Origin: Mesotaenium endlicherianum
Lineage: Eukaryota
Assembly: GCA_009602735.1 (NCBI GenBank)
Contig: WELA01002483.1
Coordinates: 165,003-224,220 of the forward strand
DNA length: 59,218 bases
Direction: 5' to 3'
Under the pieces are notes generated by a model that saw only the letters and a program-made list of their open reading frames with translations, had not been told where the DNA came from and made no database searches. The position numbers and the translations under genes were made by a program. Below, in pieces: positions 16,038 to 51,440 of this stretch; within the stretch, counting starts at the first letter, position 1, and each line of letters opens with the position of its first letter.

Positions 16038-16068
<31 letters not shown>

Positions 16069-22686: not shown

Positions 22687-22983
22687 CAGGCCCCAGGATT
22701 CGAGATAAATTTTATGTTATTTTCTTTTTTGGGTGTTTTAAAACCATGAAAAATCTTAGATTATGTCGAAAGAAATCCTGGTCATTGGGAGCGGATGTCG
22801 CGTAAAATCCCAAAATTTGCTATGTTCCTTTTAAAAATTGTCGTGGGATGTTATTAAGCCATCAAAAAAATCCTACCAAATATTGTCGGATGTTCTTGAA
22901 ACCCTGACCGTCGCCCAGAGCAGGCCAGAGGATGTTTCCAAAATTTTCCAAAATCCGCGACTTATGTCGAATCCTGGGGCCTG
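22687..22983. mobile_element. Non-autonomous hAT-type MITE, copy 1 (297 bp)
   Basis: 17-bp perfect TIR CAGGCCCCAGGATTCGA / TCGAATCCTGGGGCCTG; 8-bp TSD GTTGGATC at 22679-22686 and 22984-22991; AT-rich non-coding interior. Confidence 0.9.
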
Positions 22984-23981: not shown

Positions 23982-26900
23982 CTAAAAGAATCCTCCTACG
24001 AAAGGCACACACAAGTTGAGGCCGATGTAAAGCGAGCCTGTCTGGCAGTTGAATCCGTTATTCATCGACCGAAACAGTGCTACGCTGCGGTGGAACTTGT
24101 AGTAAATAATGGAGGCACATGTGTCGCCCCTCCGAGTTGTGTAGTACTTCCGGCACGGGAGAGCAGTTTGGATGGTGCCCCCCACGCAGACCTGATGGCA
24201 GCAGCAGGGAGAGCAAATTTGAGTAAGGGTGTCATGGTGAGGAGGGTCAGAATGTCCACACAAAGAAGCAAGCAAACCTGACTATTTCTCTAGCTTCAGA
24301 CCAAGCTTACACTAAACCTACACATAACCTTGCTCCCCGCGGTGCATCCAGGACTGAAAACGGGCTGCCACTTGGAGACTCCCTGGAGCAGAGTGTTCTG
24401 AAAATCTTGCACACCACGTGAGGCATATGAGCAAATGGCACTACAAGATCACAAGAGACAACCTCCAGGGATCTTTCCCTCCCTAGACACCACTGACATG
24501 ACATTCCTCCAGCACGAGTGGGCCAGTGTCTCCTCTAGAAGATCCAAGCGACATTCCAGCACTCCCAGCTCGCAAAAGGACGTGTTGAGCCCCTTTTACA
24601 CCTCCACACGCACGCACACGCTCTCTGCCTACTCTCTGAGACGCCATCTGCACAGCTACAAAACATCCTCTGCACAGCCGATAACTTTGGACCCTAGTGA
24701 GCGAGCGTACCTCGCCGTCACCACAATGTGGAGATCACAGGACCATGCGAGACCGAGAGGCTACCAGAAACCGCAAAAAGCAACGCAGGAGCTTGTTGAG
24801 CTTGAGGTCCCAAGGGACGGTCAGCTCAACAAGCCAGCGCGTTGCGAGAAAGCAGAGCGCGAGAGCAGAACAGAGTGTGGCTGGCTGGTGGCTACACGCG
24901 GCGTGTCCGTTGACGCACCTGCTGGCCGGGCAGCGAGAGTCCCTCAGTGGGAATCAGATTGGAGCAGTAGATGCCGGGGTTCAACGCGTAGAATTGGGCA
25001 GGTGCCAGCCCGCGCTGGAGCCAGATCGACTGACAGGTGTCGTTTGCCTCCACAGGCGCGTACTCCACACACACGGGAGCTCCCAACTTCCCCGCGCCAG
25101 CTTGCACACAGACCTGCATGGGGCAAAAGGGTGCAAAGCGTACAAACATTCAGTTCCAGTCAATGTACGTACATCCGTACCTACATGCACACACTGCGAT
25201 ACACACTCGGATCAAGAGGGGCTACTCCTCCTCCAAATTGGAGCAGCTCCTGTCATCAGGCCTCAAGAGGTGGCGACGTCAAAGCCGGCAAGTACGAAGG
25301 GGGAGGTCACTGTACACCATCGTAAGCAGGCCTGTGTTGGAGTCGATCTTGCAGATGCCTGCCTGGCAAGAGGTGCGAACATGATTGTGCGCCTATGCGT
25401 CATGAGGTTCTTTCCTATCCCGTATGTGTGTGTGTGTGTGTGTGTGTGTTTGTGTGTGAATCTCTGCAATGTTGCCCCGTATATTAATGAACAGAAAGAC
25501 AAACACAAGTGCACAGAATGAGCAGGGTGAGGGGGGAAATTGATCTTCCAAGTATCGTAAGCCTTCCAGGAAGGACCCCCGGGTATGATATTGCGATCGC
25601 CATCCACGGGAAGCACGAGCAGCAGCACCCACATTGGGGCTTCTGTGTTTCAGCCCAGTCCAGACGGAGAGAATGGAGTGCATGCCAGCATAGAAGAGAC
25701 ACGACAGCAACCCCTAAGGGTGTCCAGCAGCAGGGGACAGGTTCAGCCAACAAGCCCTTCTACTTTTGACGCCGACCTTCCTTGAACCTGCCGTGGACGT
25801 AACTTGTGACGCGTCTGCCTCTGCAAAGCCTCCCCACCGGAAATGGGCTCAGCCCCCAACAAAAGCCACCAGCAGACAAGATGCAAGCGAACGAAGCTAA
25901 CCTCTTCTTCATAGCACGGTGGGACAGGAGGCACTCGCCAGCAGGGGCAGCTGTATTGTGGGCAGCTAGCTCCAGCCACGCAGAAAAATGAGGCGAGAAG
26001 CCGGAGGAAGAAGGGGAGGGGCCAGCTCGCAGGGCAGGGCAGGGCGCCCTGGAGAGAGGTGCAGACCAAGGGCGTCCAGCATGGTCAGGAAGGGAAGGGG
26101 CTCACCTGCTGCCCCGGCAGCAGCTGTGCGCAGTCCAGGCCGGGATTCAGGTCTGGCAAGAGCTCTATTGAGAACGTCGCTGCGATCGACTGACACGTGT
26201 CGCCCTGCAAGCAAGGTACGAAACGCAGGGCTCCGCTGGGGAGGGTCACATCCAGAGGGAGCACGCAGAGCCACAGCCGCGTCGGTCGCACTCAAATGCA
26301 CACTTTGCCACACAGGCTGTGCACAGCACTTTCTAAAAGACTGCATACACGCGCTGCGGGCTAGTGTCTACAGTGCCAAGAACACGTGAATTGCATGCGA
26401 GCGCGTGCGTGCGTGTGCGTGCGTGAGTGTATTCGTGTGTGATTTGGGGGGACTGAGTTCAAGCTTGCAAATGACAGGCTCTGCATTCTGGCTGCAGCAG
26501 TGCAGAGGCCAGCAGGGTGGGGGAGCGGTGCTGAGCTCACAGGCGCAACGGAGTAGGTGGCATTGCAGCCACTGGTGTCATTCCCGTTGTCCACGGCCAA
26601 AAGTACTCCCGGCGTTAGAGGAGGCGTACAATCCAGGCCCTGTCACAAGAGGGAGCAAGAGGGGGGGGGCATCAGACTGCCTGGAGTCAGCTGTCCCTGC
26701 GCCTATATGCAAGGGGGAGACGCACAGAGGGTGCAACTGATGGCTCCCGGATTTCAAGTCCTGTTCATCAAATCCACGGCATCGCGCGGGCGCAGTGGCA
26801 CTGCCACGTGGAAGCAGTGCTAGAGCTCACAGTCCCGAGGCAGAGATCCACGAACCCCAGCTGTCTGCAGATTGACGAGGATTGCCATCATCCAAAGGTG

Positions 26901-27266
26901 CAGGGAAGAGGCTTGCGCTGATTCGAGGGGAGGGGGGGAACAGACAACTCCAGAGGTGGACAGACATGCGTTCAGACATACAACACACACGTGACCCTTC
27001 CCTACTCGTACAAACCACGTGCAGGCCCCCCTGCATTTGCACACTGTCAGGAAGACGGGGTTGTGCATATGACGGAGGCGGAGGCTCCAGACAAGATGGC
27101 GCGAGGAGCCAGCTGGCAACGAGGTTGCTGGAGAGGGGCTGCCACTCACGGGATTCAGTGCCAGGAGCTGGTCCAGGGTGATGCGGAACATGGTGTGGAT
27201 GAGGTAGCAGGTGTCGTTCTTCTGCACCTCGTAGCTGCCGCTGTCCACGTAGCTCAGCGCTGAGAG

Positions 27267-27308
<42 letters not shown>

Positions 27309-30300
27309 CTCACCCGCGAGTGTGAGGACATGATATCAGCAAGCGCAGGCTCGTGCTCATGCTCATGCGCATGCACTACAGCATTTCCCAGAAAGGTGCC
27401 TCTCACGCCAAATTTTGATACTACTTTACATTCCCATGGAAAGGTTACTGGCCAGATATGCACGGACGCATGCACGCCAGAAGCAAGACATAAAATTGCG
27501 CAGCTGGTCTTTGCCCCGCCTCCGCCAGAGTCATGGCAAAGTTTGGCAACTGAAGGAACCGGGCCGCCCGCACCCTCGAGGTGAAGAGGTGTGAAGAGGG
27601 GCTGAGGGGTACGCTCACCGGTAGCACACGTGGGCTGCTGGTTCATGAGCTCTGCCACAAAATACCCGAAGGGGCAGATGCACGTGTAGCTGCCCACCCC
27701 GTCGTCGATGCAAGTCCCCGTCTGGCACGGGTTGGACGCCGCGAAGGTGCATGGCCGCGCTGCACAGCCCCGCCCCCTCCCCATATGCGCCAGGTGGCAG
27801 CAGGGGGGAGGGCCACGTGTCAATAATCTCTTGTGGGCACAGAGCTGCATGAGCAGTTGCGCGCACACCCAGCGCGGAGGACCCTCAGCCCCCCAGCACT
27901 TCTCATAGGGCCCTGCAAACCCCCTCGAGAGAGCCTAGCAGCTGAAACACTAGATGAGAATTCTGAACAGCCTGGAACTTAGCATTTCACAGATGGGATC
28001 ACACCCATCTGCAGCACGAGGAACTCGGTGGGGCTGGCAGAGTCACACTGCTGTGGCGGCAACGAGGGAAGAGGCCATAGGGCAGGGCTTGACAGGCAGG
28101 TGAAGGCGCGTGGAGACGAGGAAAGGCTGGAAGGGTGGCGCGGCACGCCACGCCCCCCCATGCTGGCACCGAGCACAGGAGGGCTCACTAGTCAGCTGGG
28201 CAAGCCACACCAGGCCCCCAGCAGGTCAGCACAGCTTACCGGGAGCGCAGGACTGGGAGCCGTCGACGTTGCTGACGGCCACGAACTGGTCGGGGCACAC
28301 GCACTCGTAGCTACTTCCCGCAGGAATGCAGGTCCCGCCCCCGCAGGGGTTGATGCCCCCGCACGGGCTGCTGGCTGCGCATCACCAGAGGAACAGAGTG
28401 AATAGGACCAGACATACGTATTATGTGGGCCTATATGTAAACGGGTGGTTTGATGTCGCGGGAGAGAGAGAGTGCTTGGGTGTGCTTGACACAATGTGAT
28501 CATTGATCTGCACGGGGGGGGAGCGGCGCAAGCGCGCGAGCACCCACCCGCGAGGACGGGGTAGGAGGCGGGCGTGGCGGCGACGCCGCAGATGCCGGGG
28601 CCGCCCGCGATGGCCAGGCGCATGTACCCGCCCTCGCCCCAGCTGGCGCCCCACGAGTTGCGGATGATGAGGTAGGGGCGTTCGGTGTCGAGCACGTAGC
28701 CCACAAGCAGCACCGCGTGGTCCACCACCTGGTTGGCGTAGCAGTCGGGGTCCTCAAACAGGCCCTGGTGGAATAGAGCAATGAGAGGGAGAGGCGGGGG
28801 CCACGTGTCAACCACTTAGCGTTTGTTGCACGTAGTGGGCACGCAACAGACCCATGCTGATGCTCCCCTCGTCGCTCTCACAAGCTCTGGGTGCACGTGC
28901 ATCAGCAGGCCTGCTCCATTCCGCCAGTAGAGCCCCCAGGGAGCAGGGCCTGCCTCTAGTGGGTGCTCCGCTGCCAACCGCCCTCGTCCGGGAGGGAGAG
29001 TTGTGGCGGCAAACGAGAGGGATGGAGGGTGGGGTCAGAGGCGATACCCCCAGGTAGTTCTTGAACGAGTCCTGGCTGCCTTCCACGTTCACAATGACGG
29101 GCTGCCTCTGCACGGCCAGCAGGAGGCCGAGCAAGCCATAGAAATCAACCTGCTCCCACAGGGTGATTCCGTACTGGCCTTGTTCCTCCTGCAGACACAC
29201 ACACACACACACACACATACACGAGACACCCAAGCGTGATAAGCAGGTCGGTCCAGTCCCGTTTGTATAGTAGGGTGTGGAGCTTCCCAAGAGGCATAGT
29301 GCGTTCATGCAAACGTATATGTCATCGCATACAAAGGCATGAATGAACATTCATATAACAAACTGCTTCTGATGATTCCAGTCGTGCAGTTGGTTTCAGT
29401 CGAACGACTGAAATGACTGCCAATTGGGAGTCGCAGTATTTCAGCCTTCCGTTTTCAACTGTCAGCCGACGCATAACTATTGACTGAAATGAATGCCGCC
29501 AATCTCCGCCACTCCCTCTTGGCTGTCGGGCGGTGTTGCAGCCAATGAGTCAGAGAGATTTGAGGCGGAGTCACAGTCGTTCACCCATGCAGGCACCTCA
29601 TTCTCTTTAGTCACGTGGCCATTTTCAGTCGCTTCTCCAATCAGTCACTCGTGAGTCCCCGTTGTGTGTGCGTCACATTTCAAGGCAAGGCAAGGCGAGG
29701 CATTATCCCACACACCAAAGCAGCACGCGACTTCAAAGAAGAAATATACACCGATATATTTGACTACACTTGTGGATCTGTGCTTTCTGGCCGCCTGCTT
29801 ACACAACAACAGATGCTTGCATCTGACACGGCAACACACACTCGCCTTATGGATGGCAAAGTACCGTCACTAGATCTCGATCCAGGGTTGGTGCACACAC
29901 ACAGACAGGCAGGCGAACCAGCTCACGACAAATGAACTCCAGGACCACCCACGTCACAAGTGCTTGTTCGTCTTACAAGATTGGCAGCACATTCAAACGG
30001 CTCGACCCCCCGGTAGGGGTACACAGCGCTGGTGGCGAGGGCCTTCCCGGCCGCCACGTAGTTGAAAGCGTCGCCCGGCCACCCCCCCTCGCACGCGCCG
30101 CTGCCCGCCTGGCAGTCCAGCACCTGCTGCTCGCTGGCCGACACCGCGCCCGCCCCCGGGTTGCTGATGGAGAACGCGCCCTCAATGGCGCCCACCGCCG
30201 CAAACGCCCAGCTGGCACCTGGCAGACGAGGCCACGCGCAGCCAGCCAGCCAGCCAGCCCAGTCAGCCAACCGAGGAGAGCACGTTTCAGGTGAAAAGGC

Positions 30301-33300
30301 CGGTCGAAAAGCTCGGTTCTCGAGATGGGAGAGACTCTACAGGATGCAACGCCTTGGCGAGGATAAGGTCAGGACCAAGCACAATGACACCAGCCAGCTC
30401 ATGACGTTCGCCACATTTGCGGACTCACGGATGCAGACCGTGCTGGCGTTAAAACAAGAGGGAGTACCAAGAAGCGGAACACAAACACACACACTCACAC
30501 GCACACGCTGACAGGGGATAGAGCACTCCCGTGAAGGAGCTCAGCCAAGCACTCGAATGGCATCAACACTCCACTCTTCGTTGCTGCACACCTACATCCT
30601 AGACCTGGTTTTAGCCGTCCCCTGTGCAAAAGCCAACACGCGCCAGGTAAAAGAACGCAGCACCTATGCGACCTCTCGGGGCTGTTCCACGTCACACAGC
30701 AGCAGCCCGTCGGAATCAGGAGGGTAGGGCTCTAGTGTGGTGTTGTAGGCCGCTCACCGCACTGCAGCTGGTCCTTGACGGGGGGCAGCACGTTCTGCTG
30801 GGACCAGTCCACGCTGCTCGCGATGCTCCAGTTCACACTGCTGCCGTCGGCGGCGCCGGTGAACCCGTAGCTGGCGTGGCGGAACCCCGGGTTGAGGTAC
30901 GGCGACGCCTTTGTCTCCTCGTGAAACACGAGGCCCGTCACGCGCGCCAGCAGCGTCTGCGGAGGGCGTGGCGGAGGGGGGGCTGCAAGGGGGCAACAGA
31001 CAGACATATTACATCATCTAAGAAGTTAATATCATTGGAGAGCAAGCGGAGTTCGAGACGACACCAAGCGGGAACAGACTCTACCTCCCCCTTGCTGGTG
31101 CAGGTGGGCCACTTGCAAGCGCTGCTCCAGACAGGAGCCTCGGGAAGGAGCGAGTTTGAGACAGGAGGGTCCTCCCAGAAGAGTGCATACCCATGTGCCC
31201 TTACGCATAGCAGCAAGCACACTTGTCATGTGGCAAGCTGCAAGGGGCGACAAATTTCTTGACGCGCAGCCATGAATTGGCCCTTAGAGGCGACGCTGGC
31301 TGCTGTAAAGATCTGCTCTTGGCAGACGGCGCACTCGTCTCTCTGACGTCAACCACTAAGGCTGCGACGAGCGACTGCAGCACCGCACCGCCAGCCTCAC
31401 CAAGACCAACCTCACGAGTTGCAAAGGGAGCGTGGAGACGCCAAATCCTCTGCCAGACTGGATCCAAAACTGCAGATGCCTGGCAGCACACAGCACCCGC
31501 CTCTATGCACTCTGCTAATAGAGGAGGGACAGCCCGAGGGTTGGAGCGCGGGCACCCTACCAGGAATTTCCGTGCAGGAGTTGACTTGCGGCCCTATAGT
31601 GAAGCCGGCGAAGCAGAGGCAGGTGGGCGTGGTGCCGTTGAGGTAGCACTCGCCGCCCGCCTGGTACTCGCTGCCCATCCCGCAGATGGTGTAGGTGTCG
31701 GCCCCGCAGAAGGCCGCGCACTCCGCCTTTGTGCGCTGGCGGGTGGTGGGGCACGAGCCGCGGTCCGTGAAGCAGTTGTCGGCCACGCAGGACTTGGAGC
31801 CGCCGGGGTATCGTATGTACGGTGCGCCGCTCATGTAGTTGTCGCTTGCACGGACGACAACTGTCTCCGTCTGAACGATCGGCAGATCGCCCGCCAGCTG
31901 GTTCGACGATACATCTCTGACAGGTACACGCACAAAACCAAGCACATACCCAGGCGGGCTCACCCAGACACACACACACACACACACACACACATGTGTA
32001 AGTAACAGCTTACTAACAAGGCCTGGCCAGCGTGCCGGTTCTGTTGCTTCTTGAAGCAAAGGGCGCACAAAGGGACTGACACCACTCAAGTCGTGATTGC
32101 TTCCTCTAAGTTTTGGAGCATGCACACATGGCGCCTTCACATGCAAAGCCCAGAGCGCACGAGAGTGAGCAAGATCTGTCCAGACTTGCCGGAGCAAGTC
32201 ATCGCAGACCAATGAACCCAGCCACCGGAAGCAGCGTGAGGCCAGAAGTCGACAACGCAGCCGGGAGGCTGACATGCCAACCCTCGCACAGCGCCCACAG
32301 CAGTGCTGCAGCCCGTAGCTGCGCCGACACGCAGCGGCCCTCAAGACTAGGTCTGCATCCATGGCAGACGTTTTGTACGCTTGGAGACGGAGCAGGGACG
32401 AAGCTGAATAAGTGCCGTGCTGCCAACATCAGAGAACGTACGCTCCATGCTCCTCTCGACACCCGATACGTCGGCCGACTACGTCGCAGCGGTGGGCAGG
32501 GTGCGGGAGGAGGACAGGCAGCTTGCTCACTCACAGAAGTTTCAGGCGGGTCAAAGTCTTCATGCAGTAAGGCAGGATGCCGTAGAACCGGTTGCGCTGC
32601 AGCTGCCTGCAACCCCCCCAGCCCCGGGGCACTCAGCGTCACATATGCCAGATGGGGGAGCCAGCACCTGGACTTGGCAGTCAGCAATTTTCCGAACAAG
32701 CAGTCACCATATCACACCCAGCAGCCTTCAAACCGCGCGCTACGGTTGATGAACACCAGAAGCACGTCGCGCGCCTGCGCGCCATACGGCCTGCATGATT
32801 TTCGAGACGCAGTGGCTCTGCTCCGTCCAGCCGGACACAGTATGTGCGCAACCCTTAGACTTGGGGGCCGTATGCATCGTGAGCCCACTGTCAGCGGTGG
32901 GCTCCTCTTGGTTCCCGCTGGAATCACGCACGCCGACATGGATCAAGGGACGCGATGGAGTGCCAGGAGCTGAACAACGAGGAGGGAGGAGAAGACTGTG
33001 GAGAAACGAGCGATGCAGATGCAACCAGACGGGCTGCGGTGCTCGCTCTTACAGGGTGGTGATTCTGGCGAGTCTGCACAGACCATCGGGGATGTGGCCC
33101 GTCAGCCTGTTGCTCTGCAGGTGCCTGCACCACCACCCCCACCGGTCACCGTCGCACGTGTTAGAAAATCTCCCCTCCTCGAGCCTCAAATCCCACTTGC
33201 TTCTGGCGCTGGCGTTGGCCCCGACGCCGTGAGCGAGGCCCAGAGCTTCAGAGGCGCCGATGCCAGCAGGGAGCCCGGCCGAGTCTCCTGCGACCAGAGG

Positions 33301-35998
33301 GCCAATATATGCTGTAGAAAGACTTCAGAACCACTGCACTTGCACTCCATATCTGCAGCCACAGGCACCCTCCAGCTGGCGTCCCCGCACAGCTGGCGGG
33401 TGCACAATCGTGTCCAGCCCTCCCCCTCTCAAAGCCAGACTCTATATCCCAAAGAATAGGCCCATCTTGGGGGGGGGGCATTCATCCAGCCTCCGTATCT
33501 CCGGGGTGTCCCAGCACTTACGGCACATGCGACAGGGGACTCACGAGACATAGCTGCCAGGTCAAGCAGGTGAGGGGGGCCAGAGCCTTGGCTGCAGGCA
33601 GCTTAAGATGGGGTTGGGACTGCTGCCACGTGGCGCTGTGTCTTTGAGAGCAAGCCCGCCAACTGGACAGCATCTTTCATCTGACAACCGGTGCATGCGC
33701 TGACTGCCAGCAAACATCCGGCTCCAAATTTCTACGTGGACACAGAGGGGGAGGGAGGGGGCGTGGCGCCTCTCACAGCTGGGTGAGGCGGGTGAGGTTG
33801 CCGAGGCACTCGGGGATGCCGCCCGTGAGCTGATTCTGCGCCAGCTCCCTGCCGCCCCCGCCCCTCTCCCCCCGCCCGGAGCTGCTATCAGCCACCCTCA
33901 TGGCTGCTTTCAACTCGGTTCACTCGGAGGCGAGTGCACGAATGTAAGGTATCACCAGCAGCCGCTCAGGCACTGCTCCCTGGCTGCACTAGGGTTCATA
34001 GAGTCGGCAGCGCATCCAACGTCAGGGTGCATGTAGTGAAGGCACCACTTGCAGGGCCAAGTGGAGGGCGGGCTGCCGGCCATTACAGGAAGGTAAGTGC
34101 TCTGATGCGGCATACTTCTGGCGGGATGCTGCCACCCAGCTTCGTCTTGCTCAGCCGCCTGCGCCCGCACATGAACCCCCGCATGGCACCCGGCTCCATC
34201 ACTCCTGCTAAGCACGCGTACACACGTTCAGAGGCATGGGCTCAACTGCAAGCGGGGGCGCGCGTGTGCGCGCGCAGGATGGCGTCATGTGTGGACATCC
34301 GCAAAGACGTGTGCAAGAACGTGGTGCTACTTCTTGTGGCCCTACATTGACCTACACGAGGTGGTCATGGTTTTGCACGGAACAGATACGGGAGTATCAC
34401 AAACTTCTCGAGCGTACGCAACACTTGCTCCCCTCAGGCAGCCTCCAGTCCATCCACGTCAGAGACATTCGGCTGGCTATGCTGCTGAGTATGAAGGCAC
34501 ACTTGCTTCTCTCACGAGGAGGAACACGGAACTGGAGGTAGTGGAAAAGCATAGGGAGAGGAGTGATCAAAACCTGAAGCCTGCAGTGCGATTCTGCTGT
34601 GCCCTGTCTGATATCAAGAGACCCCACGGGGCACAGACAAGAGCGGCAAAGCGTCTGACTCCTTTCTCCTCCAACGTGCACGGGTCTCTGCTGCATGCAT
34701 GACGCGGGACAGCCACCTAGGAGAGTGCATACAGCAGAGTGAGTGTGACGGCTCTTTTGCAAGTGCCAAGTGGCACGTAGCAGCATCTCCATCATCAATT
34801 TGAACGGTAGCGCTGCCTGCAAGCAATGTGTCCGAAACTTACAACAGCGCCAGGCTCTGCAGGAGCTGGACGGCAGGCCCTAGGGTCCCGCGCAGTCCCC
34901 GGCCCACCACGTCGCTGCCATCCATTCATCGCAGCAGCAGCGCAGCAACGTCATCCAAAAGCGTCAGAATTCGGATTTGATTGAAAAATTCAAAGGGGCC
35001 ATCAGAAATGCTCCATGGGCCTGTGCCTTCCTGCCCCCTGCCAGGATCTCTGGCATGGCTCAGCAGAAATCCGATCCCTTCTTAAGTGCTAGCTCCTACT
35101 TCATCATGTACTCTGCCTGGGGAAGCTTCTACTCTCACCTACAGCAGCACCAGGTGAAGCTACTTGGAAGGACAAGGCGTAGGACAAAGCTGACTATGTG
35201 GCTAGGGCGGCTGAGCGCACACGGCCACACATACATGGCAGTGACATGGCCGGCCTTGTTGCAGCGGACACCGGAGTACTTGCCGCAGTAGGCTCCCTTC
35301 CACGTGGCAGTTGGCCCCGAGCTCAGAAAGTCAACCCGCAAGCTCTGCAGCGCAGCCCCTGACATAGCCAGAGAAACAAGAAAACCCTTATGGCTGAGGC
35401 GTAGAGATGTAGGGTACAGTCATGCATGAGATAGCTGCAAACTGACCTACTCCATGCTATCAAAGCCAGGAATACCTTGTATAACTGAAAAAAAGGGGGA
35501 CCATCAATACAGTACTTCCACATTGTCGCTTGTACAAGTCTCTTGACTAGGTTGCCATGTCCCGTCTGACACGACCAGTGCTCCCTTATTATTCAAATAC
35601 AAGATGGTGAGACAACCCCTATTGCTCAGCTGCACGCGTATGCCGTCGTCAAATCTCCAACTGCGGAGTAAGAGAAACAGCCAATATCCAATGATATTCT
35701 TGCGAGAACCTGAAATCTATTTCTTCTCGCATAGCTTAATAAATAAGAGGCTTCTTGTTTTGACAGAGTCAAGATTGGCAATCATACAGCTGCAAGTCTT
35801 AAGGTCAATGTGTCACCAAAGATCAGGGGAGATTAAAGCCATCACAATTTCCTGTGCAAAAGGTTTTCAGACGAAGTGCTGAAGTCCTACAAGCGAGCAT
35901 GGGAGTGAAAACGCACCGTCAGTTTTGTGAATCAATATAGCCGAAACATGCGTAAGGTAGAATATCAGCAGAAGCATTGCTGGAAAAAGCCGCCCCAT
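23982..35998 (-). CDS. Secreted mosaic protein, copy A (~911 aa): signal peptide, LRRNT + LRRs, EGF, Pro hinge, papain-like C1A domain (catalytic Cys->Ser), 2 EGF, 4 LysM. 19 exons (5'->3'): 35917-35998, 35235-35358, 34843-34914, 34087-34158, 33777-33848, 33053-33124, 32535-32606, 31561-31916, 30758-30982, 29977-30218, 29048-29188, 28548-28764, 28240-28374, 27619-27759, 27150-27259, 26541-26639, 26106-26204, 24919-25113, 23982-24191
   Basis: Signal peptide MGRLFPAMLLLIFYLTHVSA; LRR cap WKGAYCGKYSGVRCNKAGHV; plant LRRs such as LELAQNQLTGGIPECLGNLTRLTQL; C1A motifs VDWS..LPPVKDQLQC|GASWAFA, SEQQVLDC, CEGGWP, DHAVLLVGY, IIRNSWGASWGEGGYMRL, GICG; EGFs NPCGGGTC..YECVCP and NPCQTGTC..YTCICP; LysMs such as YSVAPGDTCQSIA..LNPGLDCAQLLPGQQVCV. 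All introns are GT-AG, phases are continuous (2736 nt), and every exon has a counterpart in copy B. Confidence 0.9.
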
Positions 35999-38841: not shown

Positions 38842-40094
38842 TTACGGCAGACACACATTGAGGCCGATGTACAGCGAGCCTGTCCGGCAGTTGACCCCGT
38901 TATTTAACGACCGAAAGAGTGCCACGTTGCGGTTGAACCTATGGTAAATGACGGAGGCACACGTGTCGCCCCTGTGGATTGTATAATACTTGCGGCATGT
39001 GGCGGCGCCTTGTTGGACAAACCCCCCCAGGCAGACCTGATGGCGGCAGCAGCAGAAAGGGCAGATGTCAGCGACGGCATCAGGGTCTAAAGAGTCAGGA
39101 CGTCCGTGCGCACGAAAAAAAATCTCGTCAAAATTTCATGCTTCATGCGTCCATAGCCCTGCTCCTGCGGTGCATTTACCGGGTGCCAATCGGCTGTTCA
39201 TTGATGAGCTCAGTGGAGCAAAAACACATGCCCTCTCCTGAGCCCCTCTCGAGGGTGGTCTCTAAGGGGCTCTCCAAACTGTCACAGGCGCGAGTTGTTA
39301 AATCAAAACGGAAAGACAAGATTGCAAGAGACCAATCTCCACGGGTCTTTGTCGTACGCGGCAACTACAAGGTGGAACTCCATCCCACATTGGTAGACCA
39401 CTGTGGACTCCATAGTGCCCGAGGGGCATGTCACCGCTGCAAGTATGCAAAGCAGACGCGTTCAGTCCTTTCCGGACACCCATATGCGCACACACGCTAT
39501 GCCTCCACTCTCGAGTGCCAATAGCACAGCGACAGCATTCTGGGACAGGCATTTGTCGGACAGTGCAATTAGTGACCCTGGGCCATAGCACGCAAGCATT
39601 TTCCGCCGGCACTGCGCAGGGAGGTCACCAGCCAGAGGACACCTGCTGGGCTACAGAAACCGCAGGGAGCAGCACAGGAGCTTGTCAAGCTCAAGGTCTT
39701 TGAAGCGAGCGAGCTCTCGTCAGTCACCGCCGGCGTTGCAAACGAGTAGAGCGCAAGAGTCAGAACGCGTGTGGGCTGGAGAGTGCATGTATGTGCTTGC
39801 GGCGTGTGTGTCGACGTACCTGCTGGCCGGGCAGCGAGAGTCCCTTGGTGGGAATCAGATTGGAGCAGTAGATGCCGGGGTTTAAATAGTAGAATCGTGC
39901 AGGTCCCAGCCTGTACTGGGTCCAGATTGACTGACAGGTATCGCCGGCCTCCACTGCCATGTAGTCCACACACTCGGGAGCTTCCAACATCCTATCGCCA
40001 GCTTGCACACAGATCTGCAGTCACACATTGAGGGCAACACATAGAAACATTCAGCTCCAGTCGGCATACGCACACCCATATATCACCCATACAG

Positions 40095-40147
<53 letters not shown>

Positions 40148-41222
40148 CTTGAACTAAAAGGAGCAGCTCCTTGGAACTGGAGCAGCTAATGGCTTGGAGA
40201 AGCCGGCACATCGGCAGGTACCATGTCGTCACACACTGCAAGCAAAAGGAAGTGCTTACTGCACATCTCAACAACCATGCCAGTGTTTAGGTCACTCGGG
40301 CCTCCTCCTGTTCAGCAGACAGTACAAATATATGTGTGCCTTTTCATGTCACAAGGTTCTTCTCTATGCCACATGTGTGTGTGTATCTGCATGCATATAT
40401 CTTTGCGTGTGCTGCATGTAGTTTGGACACAAGTACACGCGTGTGCGCAAGGAATAAGCAGGGTACGAGGCAAGCTTGCTCTTCCAGCCACAGCATCCTT
40501 CTCGAAAGGTGCACTAGCACATCAGAAGTTACACTACGACCACGAGCAGCAGCAGTGCTTCTCACGACGTGCCGCACTTCAGCGCAATCGTCTGCCCTCT
40601 GAAAGCTTCTCCGTCCCAGATGGGCTCGCCCCAGCAACAGAAGACCTCCAACAGAAGAAACCGCACGAGTTACCACCAGAATGAGCTACCCTGGCCCTCA
40701 GAGAACATCATGGCAACGTGACAGAGAGACAGGTGCTTTCCAGCAGGAGCAGCTGTAATGTCGGGCAGCTAGCTCCAGCCACACAGAACATGAGGCGACA
40801 GGGCACTGACTTGGTTTCAGAGGAGGGGAGAGAGGGGCCAGCTGGCGGTGAAGAACACCTTGGGAGAGGGAGTGGAGCTGAGGGCGCTATGCAAAGGAAG
40901 GAGGGGCTCACCTGCTGCCCCGGTTGTAACTGCTGGCAGTTGAGGCCGGGATTCAGCTCCAAGAGCTCCACATTGTCAAACACCCCGGCGATTGACCGAC
41001 ACGTGTCGCCCTGCAAGCAACGCACACCACCCGCGATTTCGTAGGGCAAAGTCACACCCGGAGGGAGAAGGCACAGCCGCGGCCGCATAGCTTAGACGCG
41101 CCCATCACCAAATTGGCTCCGGACGGTACTTTCTGGAAGACCACATGCAGCTCGCCAGTGCGGGCTCATGCCTCTACGGATTGCGAGCGCGCGTGCACAT
41201 GCACACGCGCCCACGCGCGTGT

Positions 41223-41254
<32 letters not shown>

Positions 41255-43329
41255 ACCTCGTGGCACTGCATCTAGCTTGCCATGGAGCCTTGCTCTCTAA
41301 GTTTCATGATTCAAAGGCCAGGGTAGTGCTGAGCTCACAGGCGCAACGGAGTAGGTGACGCCGCAGCCCTCACTGTTGTTCCTGTAGACCACCGCCAGGA
41401 CGACTCCTGGCGTCGGATGGGGCGTGCACCTCAGGTTCTGTCACAGAAGAATGGGAGAGCATGAAGCTGACTGAAACCAGCTGTCCTTGTGCCTACGAGA
41501 GGAAGAGGCAAGCCTGCGCAATTGATAGCTTCTAGATCTGAATGCTCGTTAATCAGAACCACTGCAGTGCGGAGGCTCTGTTGCGAGTATGGGAACGTGA
41601 AAGTGCTGCGACAGCGTCAATCTCGCGGCAGAGACTGCAGTCCCCATCTGTTTGCAGATTGACAGAGATGGAGAGCATTATCCAGACGCAGACATCATTG
41701 AGCACCGAGAGAAACTGGTGGGCGGAGACAGAATGCGTGAGAACTGGACAGTCAGGCATACAGAGATGTGCGCCAAAAATCAGAGTCCCTGAACACACGT
41801 GCATGTGCAGCAGCCCCCACGTCTGCACAATGTCGGGGCGTCGCAGTCAAGCTTAGAGCGGCGGCGGAGTCTTCAGACACAGTGGTGCGACATGCCAGCT
41901 GGCAACGAGGGTGCGGCGGGGGTGGCACTCACGGGATTCAAGCTCAGGAGCTGGTCCAGGGTGATGCGGAACATGGTGTGGATGAGGTAGCACGTGTCGT
42001 TCTTCTGCACCTTGTAGGTGCCGCTGTCAACGTAGCCCGGGTCTGCAGGAGGCGGCACGCACACACACGCAAAACGCACACACACGCACGCGCGCGTGCG
42101 CGCGCGCCCGTCTGGATGCTTGAGAACAAAGCGTCAGCAGGCGCATGCTCGTGCGCCACAACCCGGGCCACATGCAATGACATGCCGCATCGCAGCTCCA
42201 GCTTGCGCCCAGTCAGGCAGCACAGCAGGGGCACTTGCACGGCTTTTCCACTGTTGCGCATCTCACGAACAAACTCTCTGCTTCTCATTCTGCCCCCTTC
42301 GGGACGGGTCTCTGGCCAAGGGCACGACAAACACATGCACACAAGAAAGGCCAGAGATCGACGAACCGCTGCTCGCTGGCCCGCCTGCACCGCCTCGTGG
42401 CAGATGTACGCGATGAAGAACCCAAATCCGACCACGCCCCTAACGTCTTGTACTCCAGACAGAGGTCGGGTGGTGCGAGCGAGGGGTGGAGGGCCGCACT
42501 CACAGGTGGCACACGTCGGCTGCAGGTTCAAGAGCTGCGTAACAAAATACCCAAAGGGGCAGATGCACGTGTAGCTGCCCCGCCCGTCGTCAATGCACGT
42601 CCCCACCTTGCACGGGTTGAACGTCGAGAAGGTGCACGGCCGCGCTGCACATACCCGCCCACCACGTACGTGCCAGGTGGCAGCAACGGTTAGAGGGTCA
42701 CATGTGACCAGAGAGCAGCATAAGCGATTGCTGGTGTCGGCGCGCCCAACGCTGAGGACCCTCAGTAGGCTCAGACAGTGAATCAAACGTCAGACAAACA
42801 ATACGCAGAGGCTGGATGATCACGTATAGCACGTTCACTCACATCTACACGCCGCACCAGGAGCCGATTGGCGGCGCTGGAGTCAGAGGTCAGCGGCGAC
42901 ACAAAGCGAGGGGTAACAGGGCAGGCCTGACTTCCCGTAAGGAGCACCGAAAAGTGCAATGGCAGGGGAACTGGCGCGTCAGACCACACCTTCCGGTGCA
43001 GGTACCAAGCATGGGGGGGCTTAACAAATTAAGCCGGGCCAAGCGACGTCAGGCCCCCAGCAGGTGAGGTCGCACGCTTCACAGGGCTGACGTCAGCACA
43101 GCTTACCAGGAGCGCAGGACTGGGAGCCGTCGACGTTGCTGACGGCCACGAACTGGTCGGGGCACATGCACTCGTAGCTACTTCCCGCAGGAATGCAGGT
43201 CCCGCCCCCGCAGGGGTTGATGCCCCCGCACGGGCTGCTGGCTGCACACCACCAGAAGAATGGAGCAAATAGGACCAGACATACGTATGTGGGCCTATAT
43301 GTAAATGCGTGGTTTGATGTCGCGGGAGA

Positions 43330-43380
<51 letters not shown>

Positions 43381-46300
43381 TNGCGAGCACCGACCCGCGA
43401 GGACGGGGTAGGAGGCGGGCGTGGCGGCGACGCCACAGATGCCGGGGCCGCCCGCGATGGCCAGGCGCATGTACCCGCCCTCGCCCCAGCTGGCGCCCCA
43501 CGAGTTGCGGATGATGAGGTAGGGGCGCGGCGTGTTGAGCACGTAGCCCACAAGCAGCACCGCGTGGTCCACCATCTCGTCGGCATAGCACCCGGGGTCC
43601 GCAAACAGGCCCTGGCGGGAGACACCAAGGCGAGAGTGAGAGAGAGTGTGAGTGGTAAAGAGAGTGAACGGGAAGGGCGGGGGAGGGACAGACAGAGAGA
43701 GGCAGAGGGAGGTGGGATAGGGCGCAGACGACTCACTCCTTTGTAATTCACGAACGAGTCCTGGCTGCCTTCCACGTGGACTACAACAGGCTGCCGCTGC
43801 ACTGCCAGCAGGAGACCGAACCAGCCGTAGAAGTCGACCTGCTCCCACTGGGCAATCCCGTACTTGCCCAGCTTCTCCTGCAGGCACACGCAAGCTATCC
43901 AAGTGTGAACACCAAATGTTTAAGATCACTTTCATTGGGTTGGTAAGCTTCCCATAAGTGAAGACTTGCGTGCAGACAGACATGCACATGCCATGAGTAG
44001 ACACACGTACCGGGGCAGATGTGTACATTCACGCCAGAGCAGCACACAAGGATATAAAGAATAATGCAGTTATGCTCCGTTTGCAACTACTTATGTTTGT
44101 TCAAGTCATGCACTAAGTTTTAGGGGAGGTTTAATCACTGGCATTCAGATGTTTCAGGCGTTCAACAAAGCGACTCATGAAATCCACTCCAAATTTCAGT
44201 CAATAAATAAATGTGACTGAACGACTGTCGTGCATGCCATCACTTTCAGCTGTTACTTCACGCGTGTTGCTGTCGTAAATGCAGGCATTCAGTAATGCAG
44301 ACGGTCCAGTCATGACTGCCTATACAACCAACGCAATTGTTCTACAATCGTTCATTCACTAACGCCAAACAGTCGGTTTCGACCACTCCTCCAGACCTGT
44401 CTCAGAAGTCCTTATTGTTCATCTCACGCCAACTTCTTCAAGCAGGCAAAGGCATAATTGCTCTCATCAAATTAGCACACACAGCTCAAAAAGATCAGAG
44501 CGACATCTATTTGCCTTTATTCACGGACATGCGAATGTATGTTACTCTACTCCACTGCAACCTATGTTTGCATCGGCATTGCTTTCAAAAGTTGCAACAC
44601 ACCGTTGCTGCATCTCCACGACATGCAAAGATATGTACGCATGCACACATAGACAGGCAGCCAGGCAAAAACTGCATCCCAGAAACAAACTGCGAGACCA
44701 CGCATATCACACGTCCTTCTTTCTCTTACTTTGTCGGCCGCACATTTGGACAGCTCGGTCCCCCGGTAGGGGTAGGCGGCGCTCGTGGTGAGGCCTTTCC
44801 CGCCCGCCGCATAATCAAACGCTTCGCCCGGCCACCCCCCCGCGCACGCGCCGCTGCCCGCCTGGCAGTCCAGCACCTGCTGCTCGCTGGCCGACACCGC
44901 GCCCGCCCCCGGGTTGGTGATGGAGAACGCGCTCTCGATGGCGCCCACCGCCGCAAACGCCCAGCTGGCACCTGGCAGAGGTGGCATACCCAGCAAGCCA
45001 AGGTCAGCATGGTCCAGGCTGAGAAGACGGGGATGAAATAACGCCACACGAGATCACAGTGGCATTCTAGGACGCGGAGAAAGTCGGTCTAGTACACTGG
45101 CACCAGCCAGCTCCTGATGTTTGCCGCACGCGCGCAAACACGCATGCAGAGCGTATAGTATCTACATGTATATAAAAGTTGTAGAAAAATACATGGAGGG
45201 GCCACAAGAATTACACACACACAAACACACAGACACACACACACAGGCGTGCACGAGCAGTCAGGAGGCAAATGCACTTCCGCTGATGGAGCACGGGCCA
45301 AGGATACGTGGAAGGCCTGATAAACGACACGTGGTTGCTGCTCTGATCGCAGAAGCATGAGGACCCGCCCAGCTTGAGGCCCCACCCGAGACCTCAGGCC
45401 CTCCGCCCGCCCCCCCCCCCAAGCCCAGCACGTCCCTACAGCAACAAAAGTAGCTCTCCTGAGCAAACCCTCCAATCATGGTAGGTGCTCTGCGTCACAC
45501 AGGTGTCGCATTTGTAGCGTGCCAGATACAGGAGCTCAGGCTCATGGCTCTGCAGTTTGGGCCAGGGGCCAATGATCGGGAACTGGGCCAAGTCTGGGCC
45601 AGGGTGTGTGCGCAAGTTCCAGTGGGGGGCCTTACCGCAGCGCAGCTGGTCCTTGACGGGGGGCAGCACGGCCTTGCCCTTTGGCTGGCGCCAGTCCACG
45701 CTGCTCTGGATGCTCCAGTCCACACCGCTGCTGTTGGTGCCGCCCGAGAACCCGTAGCTGGCGTGGCGGAACCCCGGGTTGAAGTGGCGTGAGGGCGCAG
45801 CCTCTTCAGGAAACACGAGGCCTGTCACGTGCTGCAGCAGCGCGGGGGGGGCTTGCGGCGGAGGGGGGGCTGCAGGGCCACAAACAAGCAAAGACAAACA
45901 ACCCAAGTACTATGTGTGTGTGTGTGTGTGATTATTGTACGAGGGAACCGGAGAGGCGGATGATAGGACGGCGCAAGAAGGAGCCGCGCCGCCCTTATCG
46001 GTGCAGGTGGTGCACACGCAAACGCTGCTCAAGATAAGAGCCCAAGGGAGGAGCGGATGTGAGACAAGAGGGTCCTCCCAGGAGGGTGGTCCTCCCACAG
46101 GAGCGCATCTTGATTGCCCCAACACCTGGCATCAAGCAGCGGAACCCCTAGAGCCCTCAACTCTCGCCATGTGGCAAAATTTACAGGGCTTCCCAGAGTG
46201 CAAGGTATCGATCCCTTCTGTGCCTTCATAAATTTGCGCAGAGGGGTGGCGCTGGCTGCTATGAATATCTGCTCTTTTGACCGGCTGCGCACTCGTTTCT

Positions 46301-49300
46301 CTCATGCCTAAGAATGATGCTGCGGTGGACGACTTCTTTCCTGCGACACCACCATCGCTCACCAAGCCGAGCTCACAAACTGTGCAACATAGAGTGCGAG
46401 AAGCCGCGCCCAGAGCATGACCAAATATAAAGTGACACCCTCCTCTGTGCCTCCACTCAGAGGAAAGAAAACTGATTTGGAGCAAGGGATTCCCCAGAAG
46501 CACAAGCCCACGAAGAAGTGCCCACCAGTAATTTCCATGCAGGAGTTGACTTGCGGTCCTATAGTGAAGCCGGCGAAGCAGAGGCAGGTGGGCGTGGTGC
46601 TGTTGAGGTAGCACTCGCCGCCCGACTGGTTCTCACTGCCCGTCCCGCAGATGGAGTAGGTGTCGGCCCCACAGAAGGCCGCGCACGCCGCCGTCGTGCG
46701 CTGGCGGGTGGCGGGGCACGAGCCGCGGTTTGTGAAGCAGTTGTCGGAAGCGCATGCGATGGACCCGTTAAGAAACTCCACATGGGCGCTGCCTATCAGG
46801 TAGTTTTTGTCTGCGCGGACGACACCTGTCCGCGTCTGGAAGCGTGGGAACTCGCCCGTCAACTGGTTCGACGAGAAGTCCCTGACACACACAGGAGACA
46901 CATGCGCGCACATGTGCACAGGCACACAGGGGACGCATCACACACAGAGACACAGACAATCCACATAAGGAACACGTGGGCACACACAAGAACGCGTGTG
47001 AGCGATAACCACATCGACAAAGACAAGTCATGGCAAGCGTGCGAGTCCTCCTCTCTTCTGACAGTAGGATCAGGGCCATCGAGATGCACACGAGTGGACT
47101 GACCCTTCACAGAATGCAACCTCTTCCTTCAAGTACCGAAGCTCCTGAAGGTGGTGCCGTCCCACGCGAAGCCGAGCACGACCTTGCCGGAACAAGAGGA
47201 GAGGATCAGAGGGGCCAAACTCTGGCAGCGTCAGTCCCCTCCTTCCACCAGACCGGGAGTCAACAACACAGCCCAGACACCGATGCCTCGGTCCTAGCAC
47301 ACTTCTCACGGCAGCTCCGCAGCATGCAGCCACGCTGGCAAGCAGCAAGCCTTTAAGGGGGGGGGCTGAGCCCCCGGCACACGGTACCCGCTCCGCGCAA
47401 GGTGCGGCGAGAGACGGCCCAAAAAACAAAGCTGCATGACGGTGCCGTTCTACCAGCACCAGAGGCTTCAGAAAGCGTGTGCTCCTCGTGTTCCTCGTAA
47501 GGCAACACGCTGCCCAACTGGAAGATGTGACGGGAGGCAGGGTGCGGGCGGGGAATAGGCAGCTAGCTCGCTCACTCACAGTAGTCTCAGGCGATCCAAG
47601 CTCCCCACGCAGAAAGGGAAGCTTCCATAAAACAGGTTTCCCTGCAGCTGCCTGCCCCCCCCCCCCGCCCCCCCCGCCAAACAAAACGCGCACACACACA
47701 CACACAGACATATAACGTTACATCATGCTAGATGACAACGCCTCAGGTATAGAGGCAGCATCTAAAGAAGCAGTGGCGTACGCAGGATGTGCCCAGCACT
47801 GAACATCAGCAGAAGGAGAGGCCGCATGGAGGGGACCCTAGGAGATATTAAATAGCTGTGGACCCGGAACGGCAACCCATGCGGACGTCCAGGTTCCAGG
47901 TGGGCAGTGGTGCCGCTTCTTACAGGCTGGTAATTCTGACGAGTTTGCACAGTTCAGTGCGGATGTGGCCGGTCAGCTGGTTCTTCTGCAGGTGCCTGCA
48001 TCAAACACCCCCCCGCCCCCCACCCTCCCCAACAAAAAACCCAATGCCGGACATGTTCAGACCCCTTCTGCAGCCTTAGGACGCACTGGCTCTTGAATCT
48101 GACGCCTGACGCGCTGACCCAGCTCCGGAGCTTCAGCGGCGCCAATGCAAGCAAGCACTCTGGCCGCCTTTCCGGCGAGTAGGAGGCAAACAAGTAGCAG
48201 TCAGAAGAAGCAAGAGAGGACTGCGCCCAAACCCACACCCACATCCACCGTCTCCCCTCAGCTGCCGGCACCGCCTCTGAGTGAGCCCCTCCACTTCACC
48301 AAACCCCTAAACCCTCGACTCTACGACTGAAGGAGTAGGCCCATCTCCAGGGGCAGGCAGATGGGCCCGACGCGTGGCATTAATCCAGCCCCGGATTTCG
48401 CACATGGCAGGCACTTGAACATATTTGAAGCACGCACATGATGGGTTGTGAGATAGACAGAGCTGGTAGGTTCAGCCAGTGAGGGGTCTCGAGCGTCAGC
48501 TTCAAGACAGCCTAATGTGGTTGAAGAGGCTGCCACTTGGCCTTTGTCTCCAATTCTTGACAGTCAAACCCCCGGCGCAATCTAATGCGTAATGAATAAG
48601 CCTGTCGTGAAGAGCGTTGCACTTGCCCCTTCACCTCTTCATTGCCCCCGCGGGTGACGCAATAAGGCCCCTTAGCCAAGGGACGGGCGAAGATGAGAGC
48701 CGCGGCGGATAGACATATGGGGAGGAAGCACGCAAAAACCCTGGCGGGGTTTGGGCTTGGACGAAGGTGGAGAGGGAGAGGAGACACCTATCTCAGATGC
48801 ACTCCAAGAAGGCACTCATTTTCTTGTCCCAGAAACTAATGAAGGGGCCGCAGGCTGGCCCCAAACTTACGCAGGGGAACAACTCGTCCAAGAAGTCACG
48901 ACACTCGGTGCACACAAACATGTCCCAAACCCCCTTGCCGTACCTAGCGCCACCATATGCAAAAACACAACGTCGACCGGAAGTCGCATGCGTTCAAAGG
49001 AGGAGGGGGGGTGAAAACCCTGCCATCCCTACAGTACAGTTCCTGGTGCTCTGGTGCACTTGACAGCGAGCCCGCCCACTTGGCCACTGCATGTGCAGAG
49101 AGGGGGAGGAAGAGTGCTGGGCCTCACAGCTGGGTGAGGTGGGTGAGGTTGCCCAGACACTCGGGGATGCCGCCTGTGAGCTGATTCTGCGCCAGCTCCC
49201 TGCCGCCCCCGCCCTCCCCACCCCGTTTGAAAATGCTGTCAGGATACCAGCTACTTCGAGCCCCTTTCAATATGAGGCTGCTATAGGCTTTTGAGGTCTC

Positions 49301-51440
49301 TGGCAGAGCGTACGAGTAAGAGTTGCTGGAAGTTGACTAAACACTGCCACACATCGCGCGTTGCACCAATCGTTCGGCAAGCTGAGCTAGTATACTCTCA
49401 TCCTGCAAGTCTCCTCACACCCCTGTTGACGAGTCCGTTGGCAAGGGCACCTGAGAGCATCCTGGAGCGCTGATGCGGGCCATCTGTGGCTGTCAGTCCC
49501 TCGCACTGCGCATGCAGCCTCTCATGCTTGGAGCCCGGTCATACAGATGCACTCGGGGCCTCTATAAGATAGTTATATGTTTTGTGTCTCAAGTTGGAGT
49601 GGGGGAATCTTAGACGACAGACTGCAAGTACTCAAGTACTCAGGGTCTCTTGTTGGGCAAGGTTTATGCGGTAGGAGCTGCTGGGCATTTACAGGGAGGT
49701 GAGTGCGCTGAGGCGGCATATTCCTGGGGGTATGCTTCCTCTCAGCTTCGCCTTGCTCAATTGCCTGCAAAACACGCATGACCCCAAAGACACCAGGCCC
49801 CATCAGACGCCCCTCTCCCTAACAAATACGCATGTCAACACACGCTCAAGTGCTTGCAAACGGGCGCGCGCACATACGCGCCCACACAGATACACACAGA
49901 CACACACACGCGCTACATCATTTGGATGCACACGCGTGGCCTTGACCAAGAAAGCCATGCGTGTGTTTGTAGGCACAGACGCGCCTACACATGGTGCTTA
50001 TGGTCTTGTATGTCCACAGTCTGGAGTGCCGCAACTTCTCGTGTGCGAGATACACCCCCTCTGGTCCACATTCAGAGCCCTTCTGCGAGCTACCCTACTG
50101 CACTAGAGAACAGGCTATGCTTCTTGCGTGGGCGGATACAGCCTCGATGAAATCATAGGGGAACTGTGAGGCAAGGAGTCATGTCAACGCAAAGCTCGAA
50201 ATGTGAACAATCGAACAATGGCCTGCCTCGTGCGAGGCGCTCTGAGGCATAACATCTAGGGTTCACAGAAGATGTCCGACCCCCTCCTATGATGTGTGTG
50301 ATGTTTTGCTTGAGAGGGAAGGGACAGCTCTAGGGAGAGGACTGCCAGTGAAAGTGACGGTTAGTCTCTGAGTGCGAAATGGGATGCAGCAGCATGTCCA
50401 CCCCTCACGCTAAAGTGTTTAATGGTGAGTGTAAGCGGCACGTCCAAACTCACAGCAGCGTCAGGCTGCGCAGGAACTCGATGGCGGGGGAGATGGTCCC
50501 GCGCAGTCCTTGGCCCACCACATCGCTGCCCCCAATGCATCGTGCACGCAGTGTCATCATTGAGTGAGAATGATTAAGAAATTTTGAGAAGGCATCAAGA
50601 TTCAGGTGCAGGGGGCGTCAGACATGTCCAAGCACCAGATGCATGTTGCTGTCAGGTAAAGGAGTGGGAGAAAGCTCAGAAAGTTTGACGCTTCTTCGGG
50701 CACATGCCCACACATACATGGTGACAACATGACCGGCCTTGTTGCAGCGAACACCGGAGTACTTGCCGCAGTAAGCTCCCTTCCATGTGACAGTTGGCCC
50801 TGAGTTGTTGAAGTCATGCCGCAAGCGCTGTAGCGCAGCCACTGACATCCCAAGGAAAACAAATATTTCAGGCTCAGTTGTAGAAATGTATGGTATGCTT
50901 CTACATGATTTCAATACATATATATATACATATATACATATATATGTATATATGTATATAAATATATATTTATAAATGCATACATTGACCTGATGCATGC
51001 CCACAAACACATGACTACCCTATGAAGCTGGAGAGCTAGGGGCTTCATGGCTAACTCTTCATTCAACAACAAGATGGTGAAATATTCAACTCCCTCAAGT
51101 GTTCGGCTTCACAAGTGCACTTCTTTCACCTACTGAGAAACGAGGTCATTAAACACTGTCGCTAACGAATTAATTTCAGTACCTAGTCGCGACTTTTTCT
51201 TTCACAAAAGCACAATACAGCTGACTCGGGGACTGACAAACCTAAAAGCAGCTATTGCAGGGAGCTGCCAGTGTGAGTTTGCGGTTCCACCCAAAGTGAC
51301 CGAACAATACTACTCAGAGGAAGTGGTGCTATCAAAGAGAGTGGGTCTGAAAACGCACGGTCGGTTTTGTGAAGCAAAACAGCAGAAGCATATGCCACGT
51401 GGAAAATTAGCAGAAGAACTGCTGAAAATGGTTGCACCAT
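38842..51440 (-). CDS. Secreted mosaic protein, copy B (~909 aa), tandem paralog of copy A with the same architecture. 19 exons (5'->3'): 51359-51440, 50718-50841, 50454-50525, 49693-49764, 49128-49199, 47924-47995, 47580-47651, 46526-46881, 45636-45869, 44730-44971, 43737-43877, 43395-43611, 43107-43241, 42504-42644, 41933-42042, 41339-41437, 40912-41010, 39820-40014, 38842-39036
   Basis: Signal peptide MVQPFSAVLLLIFHVAYASA. Exon sizes are identical to copy A except exon 9 (+9 nt) and the last exon (-15 nt). C1A motifs VKDQLRC|GASWAFA, DHAVLLVGY, IIRNSWG. No in-frame stops found (2730 nt). Confidence 0.9.

Follow-up and report, generated by a model that had tools for sequence, protein, structure and literature searches.

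Serine in place of the catalytic cysteine in two papain-EGF-LysM genes of Mesotaenium endlicherianum: an apparently recurrent replacement and a putative binding module

Why should two neighbouring genes of Mesotaenium endlicherianum, a zygnematophycean green alga from the neighbourhood of the land plants, keep a papain domain in which Ser occupies the place of the catalytic Cys? The question is raised by a stretch of 59,218 nucleotides (GenBank assembly GCA_009602735.1, contig WELA01002483.1, positions 165,003 to 224,220), hereafter called the window, to which all coordinates refer and in which two paralogs, genes A and B, lie on the minus strand. A single swap of Cys for Ser is in itself unsurprising, since Ser-type papains are already known from SERA5, silicatein and testin.

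Gene A, a papain-LysM gene (23982..35998, minus strand), consists of 19 coding exons encoding 911 amino acids, as established by RNA joints and an open spliced frame, and 15 of its 18 introns are seen as RNA joints. Gene B (38842..51440, minus strand) has the same architecture, with 19 coding exons for 909 amino acids; 10 of its 18 introns are seen as RNA joints and the eight others were placed by homology to A. The spliced frames of both genes are open, and expression and splicing of each were found in all four RNA runs. The two products are 75% identical; their dN/dS is 0.47 overall, against 0.42 for the papain domain alone. Among the public JGI Mesen1 models, ME000065S09001 (P0001) is 100% identical to gene A over exon 10 and lacks 10 amino acids at the exon 14/15 joint, while ME000065S09004 (P0002) covers only the 3' part of gene B (exons 10-19), the RNA joints supporting a full-length gene with the nine first exons that are missing from this model. 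A joint at 45782/46526 with AG..AC ends was rejected as an isoform of gene B and read as cross-mapped reads of gene A.

The order of the domains is common to A and B: a signal peptide, LRR, an EGF-like domain, a Pro-rich linker with a short pro-like segment, the Ser-type papain domain, two EGF domains and four LysM-type repeats, and Pfam matches LRR, Peptidase_C1, EGF and LysM on A. In this gene, the plant-type extracellular LRR region (31883..35358, minus strand) is composed of a cap and five 72-base exons, the two EGF-like domains C-terminal to the papain domain occupy 27619..28374 (minus strand), and the four LysM-type repeats (23982..27259, minus strand; Pfam LysM E 2e-26, with three stretches passing alone) display, in the predicted model of this part, four repeated strand-helix-helix-strand units. 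The N-terminus of both products is hydrophobic, no membrane segment was found after it (the top 19-residue hydropathy past residue 30 is 1.37 for A and 1.29 for B), neither protein contains a kinase domain, and the sequences point to proteins that are likely secreted.

Elsewhere in the window, a gene for a plant cation/H+ exchanger (CHX) lies at 4241-9027 on the plus strand, with Pfam CHX17 domains in 8023-9027 and an N gap at 6676-7286 inside it, and a multi-exon exocyst SEC8 gene with several N gaps is found directly downstream of gene A, at about 10500-21263 on the minus strand (Sec8_N match at 20940-21263). Upstream of gene B stand two Ty3/gypsy-like retrotransposon pieces of opposite orientation, recognised by eye from RT, RNase H and integrase-like motifs: the plus-strand copy (52394-53895) is broken into several frames, and in the minus-strand copy (54723-59216) frames of 850 and 581 codons are open. 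An open reading frame at 972-1505 on the minus strand, with a weak SWIM zinc finger match (E 0.004), is possibly a Mutator-like transposon remnant, and an element some 280 bases long, seen by eye in related copies of opposite orientation downstream of both genes (22690-22975 for A, 37270-37560 for B), may possibly be a small inverted-repeat transposon.

The first step of the answer concerns whether the Ser is real. Where the catalytic residue belongs, at Cys25 in papain numbering, the genomic codon is AGC at 30211..30213 (minus strand, amino acid 385) in gene A and at 44964..44966 (minus strand) in gene B, and the RNA of both genes gives the same reading. Intron 9 splits the codon of Gly23 in both genes. 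It spans 30219..30757 (minus strand) in A, from the end of coding exon 9 at 30758 (GT donor) to the start of exon 10 at 30218 (AG acceptor), and 44972..45635 (minus strand) in B, from 45636 to 44971, so that the spliced motifs read VKDQLQC-G-ASWAF and VKDQLRC-G-ASWAF, respectively. The joint 44971/45636 of gene B is present in all four RNA runs (16, 23 and 7 reads, and one contig), and no alternative letter is listed at 44964-44966 in the RNA of this gene. The RNA support for the joint of gene A is indirect: in X1, contig 3 has a length of 1451, which leaves, after subtraction of 1192 and 225, 34 letters, as many as in 30218-30185, with a 30-letter overlap with contig 2, and eight X14 reads run from the shared start of exon 10 into the end of exon 9 of A. 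No variant is listed at 30211-30213 in the RNA of gene A, for which X10 provides about 50 reads at neighbouring positions. Since exon 10 itself contains the Ser codon, immediately ahead of that of Trp, no nearby splice site can supply a Cys; an alternative splicing that restores Cys, which the initial annotation had named as a finding that would overturn its claim, is ruled out by this position.

The rest of the active site is present in both genes. In gene A, the oxyanion-hole Gln19 is encoded at 30768..30770, His159 (in DHAV) at 28717..28719 and Asn175 (in RNSWG) at 28657..28659, all on the minus strand; in gene B, the codons of His159 and Asn175 are at 43564-43566 and 43504-43506. A and B both keep Gln19, His159, Asn175, Trp177 and the six Cys of three disulfide pairs (Cys22, 56, 63, 95, 153 and 200), and the Cys25 nucleophile required of an active C1A cysteine peptidase is Ser in each of them. 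The replacement of Cys by Ser in the two paralogs is confirmed, as is the retention of the Gln, His, Asn and six structural Cys that had been described with it.

The fold, in turn, is predicted to be intact. The papain domain of A (amino acids 362-582, exons 9-12; 28548..30821, minus strand) matches Pfam PF00112 with an E of 1e-49 over positions 2-216 of the 220 of the profile, and that of B lies likewise on exons 9-12 (43395..45708, minus strand). A first structure model, built on 14 sequences (mean pLDDT 55), was too weak and was set aside; the model used here derives from an alignment of 58 sequences, reaches a pLDDT of about 90 over the papain domain of A and superimposes on actinidin with a Z of 32.8 and an rmsd of 1.5 for 217 aligned residues. 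By its domain and its fold, A belongs to the papain family C1A, and a domain predicted to be intact with its catalytic residue replaced fits a C1A non-peptidase homologue.

A segment conserved in the family, in Ser and Cys members alike, precedes the papain domain (amino acids 313-360, motif FRHASYGF; 30825..30968, minus strand, in A and about 45712-45855 in B). In the model, whose alignment included true proenzymes, residues 314-581 align to procathepsin K 64P-215 (247 residues, rmsd 2.5) and also to procaricain and propapain, and the segment overlies the last third of the procathepsin K propeptide with a pLDDT of 66-76. The last part of a papain-type propeptide runs through the active-site cleft, and the model offers as a lead that segment 313-360 would take the route of such a propeptide's C-terminal part. 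No PF08246 match to an I29 prodomain was found in A or in the 39 relatives scanned (37 family rows and two outsiders), and a GNFD-like motif is present in none of 133 family proteins. A PDB search of exon 9 for a propeptide remnant gave a spurious match as its best (E 0.056), and the profile comparison of the segment with 19 typical prosegments by hhalign returned a probability of 0.1.

The relatives of A and B, taken from protein collections only, were gathered by three homology searches and from the best 150 matches of a profile search against 1.84 billion representatives, and they form a family of papain-EGF-LysM proteins, many with N-terminal LRR or legume-lectin modules and one with hevein modules. 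Named members among the 30 clusters looked up come from Mesotaenium, Closterium, Spirogloea and Netrium, the others being unlabelled transcriptome models. In the proteins P0016, P0018, P0049, P0113, P0123, P0147 and P0124, the papain domain is preceded by an added legume-lectin domain or by hevein repeats, and the N-terminal recognition module thus appears interchangeable in the family. We found no description of this family in the literature listings covered, nor any mention of it in the main texts of four papers, on the genome of Zygnema (PMC11096116), RNA-seq in Mesotaenium (PMC10505561), the secretome of Penium (PMC6027541) and PRR evolution (PMC10834447), whose supplements may list the domain combination. 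The ESM Atlas returned only generic Peptidase_C1 clusters, all below 0.9.

Among the matches listed were 135 family rows, of which 46 were removed as redundant, broken, devoid of position 25 or with fewer than 150 filled columns; in the 89 remaining ones, position 25 is Cys in 58, Ser in 30 and Gly in one. Random residues at this site, which had been named as the mark of neutral decay, were therefore not found in the homologs. A quick LG+G4 tree of 97 rows, with typical Cys papains as outgroup and 26 of its 93 forks unsupported, gives at least 11 Cys/Ser changes at position 25 and 12 separate non-Cys clades, and more careful trees of 43 and 25 rows give a family minimum of five changes. On the 97-row tree, position 25 changed 12 times, His159 and Asn175 once each and Gln19 three times, for a median of 22 per column. 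A single origin of all the non-Cys core rows was rejected on the 25-row tree (p-AU 9e-81). Nor is the Ser of A and B one that related algae hold by common descent, the grouping of A and B with the Closterium Ser clade being rejected (p-AU 0.021), and one clade of the Mesotaenium Ser genes is compatible with the data (p-AU 0.09). Some of the changes may be reversions to Cys, and we infer from the sequences that the Cys to Ser swap happened about ten times in this algal family.

A and B themselves, whose place is among algal Cys paralogs, come out as sisters in every tree (support 99-100). The retention of Ser in two diverged copies, invoked by the initial annotation against decay, consequently carries little weight: the sister relation implies one inherited Ser and one event, and excludes two independent retentions. 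Around this Ser the two genes are nearly identical, with one synonymous difference in the 47 synonymous-capable codons of the stretch 375-425 for 16% overall, and a run of 56 codons without synonymous difference (permutation p 0.004), which could result from gene conversion or strong codon bias. Their nearest relative, P0010 (ME000110S_11032), reads G-G-G-W at positions 23-26; the Gly comes from a public gene model, which begins the papain exon at the intron position common to P0087 and P0094. Gln19 is Glu or Asp in 8 of the 28 called Ser rows and in 1 of the 57 called Cys rows. All eight belong to a Closterium-rich Ser clade of 12 rows (inner tree length 3.0), in one row of which (P0093) His159 is Asn; since this loss of Gln19 amounts to two changes inside a single clade, with A and B outside it, it does not represent many independent events.

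Outside the family, the 101 called papain rows from the searches include 12 without Cys, 10 of them Ser and 2 Ala. In P0153, P0162, P0177, P0185, P0186, P0191 and P0218, two or more papain domains stand in tandem, at least one of them having Ser or Ala at the catalytic site, in some cases beside a Cys domain. P0026 and P0037 are Ser-type papains, one with WSC domains and one joined to a NOG1 GTPase, the latter possibly a fused gene model.

We propose, as the probable explanation of these observations, that A and B, which are spliced, expressed and likely secreted, contain a Ser-type papain of predicted intact fold that would work as a pseudoprotease and bind without cutting; the decoy or ligand-binding pseudoenzyme suggested earlier is, in our opinion, the best reading. 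Indeed, the repeated swap to Ser in the family makes it likely that the papain part binds proteins rather than cleaves them, and Ser would be favoured because the change is isosteric, removing the nucleophile and keeping the shape of the cleft. Signs against catalysis are, in our reading of the alignment, the Gly of P0010 and the losses of Gln19 and His in a Ser clade. After secretion of the proteins, the LysM repeats would tether them to polymers of N-acetylglucosamine, such as chitin or peptidoglycan. The pro-like segment would cover the cleft until it is cut away by another protease, which would be needed because the Ser form cannot activate itself, and which might be a co-expressed Cys paralog. 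The organism also has Cys paralogs (P0003-P0006), and reads with the Cys motif occur as loose ends in the same RNA runs as gene B (47, 63 and 17 reads). The open cleft would then hold, uncut, whatever the active paralogs encounter, with microbial papain inhibitors or substrates as the most plausible candidates. A role of A and B in defence may be suggested from their domain content.

Several known systems help to evaluate this proposal. An association of papain and chitin-binding modules has a precedent in Volvox, for which Amon, Haas and Sumper reportedly described in 1998 a wound- and pheromone-induced secreted cysteine protease with a papain-type domain and chitin-binding modules. Testin, TINAG and soybean P34 are C1A non-peptidase homologues with a papain fold, a catalytic Cys changed to Ser or Gly and a binding role; unlike the algal proteins, they are single-lineage losses with other architectures, and TINAG clusters in the ESM Atlas are low-score leads only (at most 0.84). 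The Ser-type SERAs of Plasmodium, such as SERA5, are pseudoproteases of clan CA family C1 and combine, as the present family does, a papain domain in which Ser stands at the catalytic Cys, a mixed Cys/Ser multigene family and secretion, and for SERA5 itself a non-enzymatic role is reported as demonstrated (PMC4671257). According to the same text, native Ser-type SERA5 has no detectable activity, its Ser-to-Cys form is active, its Ser-to-Ala form is without phenotype, the change of Cys to Ser abolishes the activity of papain and of cathepsins L and S, and earlier reports of a weak activity of SERA5 are cited (PMC4671257). The SERAs differ from A and B by an unrelated lineage and other flanking domains, whereas the algal swap recurs at least 11 times, in a domain joined to LRR, EGF and LysM. 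In tomato, catalytically dead Rcr3 is reported to be processed in trans, to bind a fungal inhibitor and to be sensed by an LRR receptor (PMC7382257, PMC11371160). By analogy, A and B may resemble the pair Rcr3/Cf-2 in offering a secreted papain-like bait for microbial inhibitors, independent of catalysis, together with an extracellular LRR protein. By nature, however, Rcr3 is a catalytically active Cys protease that has a complete prodomain, and the membrane receptor Cf-2 is a protein apart from it, whereas A and B join LRR and papain in one soluble chain; devoid of membrane anchor and kinase, they cannot signal alone as Cf-2 does.

A rather unlikely alternative to binding without cutting is that the proteins are of an extracellular-matrix or lectin-like kind, in which the papain domain serves as structural spacer or scaffold; the pro-like segment would keep its cleft plugged, and only LRR, EGF and LysM would do the work. 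The conservation of that segment in Ser and Cys members and its modelled course along the propeptide path would suit such a plug, as would the inability of the Ser form to process itself, the lack of a membrane anchor and the alterations of Gly65/Gly66 and Trp26 in some Ser rows. Against such a spacer speak the cleft-lining residues His159, Asp158, Asn175 and Trp177, which underwent 0-1 changes inside the non-Cys clades for a median of 4 per column, and the processing in trans reported for dead Rcr3 (PMC7382257).

It is unlikely, in our estimation, that Ser-His-Asn forms a working serine triad, selected repeatedly for a non-peptide chemistry such as esterase activity, acyl transfer or deacylation on LysM-bound glycans. 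The near-invariance of His159 and Asn175, next to a position 25 that changed 12 times, would likewise suit a catalytic role that was kept, Gln19 is kept in A and B, Ser is the replacement in 30 of the 31 non-Cys family rows while random single-base loss of Cys would yield it with a chance of 0.15-0.29, and silicateins are a natural Ser-type precedent, as stated in PMC4671257. Ser is nevertheless usual outside the family too and is maybe simply the tolerated residue, so that the preference for it is no proof of a new catalysis; moreover, Gly occupies the site in the sister gene, one Ser clade shows losses of Gln19 and a single loss of His, SERA5 is described as inactive (PMC4671257), and the silicatein precedent is weakened by triad mutants that are reported to be still active, from which the role of the triad in silicatein has been questioned (PMC6233156).

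A relaxed selection, by which redundant copies of the family would lose their Cys and drift toward pseudogenes, is largely refuted and very improbable. The family is indeed large and redundant, a dN/dS of 0.42-0.47 is not very low and several Ser rows stand on long branches, but the frames are intact, spliced and expressed, and the 12-row Ser clade keeps its fold residues in spite of its inner tree length. The chance calculated above for Ser does not fit neutral decay, since the replacement is almost only Ser in the family. The fold close to actinidin, the open frames, the expression in the four runs and the dN/dS of the papain domain argue against decay, as does the presence of Cys or Ser in 88 of the 89 rows, so that the initial conclusion stands on grounds other than the two copies.

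Silicateins have a cluster of Ser before the catalytic His and a Tyr after the catalytic Ser, and silica skeletons are not known in these algae. A silicatein is defined, in the text of PMC6233156, by its descent from sponge cathepsin L and by more than 50% identity to cathepsin L. The papain domain of A is 34-35% identical to cathepsin L and cathsilicatein chains, and a membership of A and B was rejected: these multi-domain algal proteins nest among algal Cys paralogs, in trees without sponge silicatein, from which their Ser would have arisen independently. The term silicatein-like, applied to them initially, holds for the three letters Ser-His-Asn in a cathepsin L-like fold (PMC6233156), and fails for the Ser cluster, whose absence had been noted and is borne out (YANQVVDH in A, YADEMVDH in B), for the I29 prodomain and for any closer structural match. 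A condensation of silica, for which these shared letters would speak, is thus extremely improbable, with Trp instead of Tyr after Ser and with cathsilicatein 2vhs in the 43rd rank (Z 31.0), amid ordinary papains, in the structure search with the model.

In conclusion, what is new here is not the existence of Ser-type C1A proteins, which were known, but a papain-EGF-LysM family that has modules of receptor type and in which the swap would have occurred separately about ten times. The setting is unusual: an expanded family, often equipped with LRR, legume-lectin or hevein modules, in which the residue has changed at least 11 times. The close Cys/Ser sister pairs present in this family supply natural matched pairs with which to ask if a papain of the Ser type can act as an enzyme or solely as a binder. 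Should the decoy reading be true, secreted protease decoys and LRR modules would have come together already in the algae that are sister to land plants.
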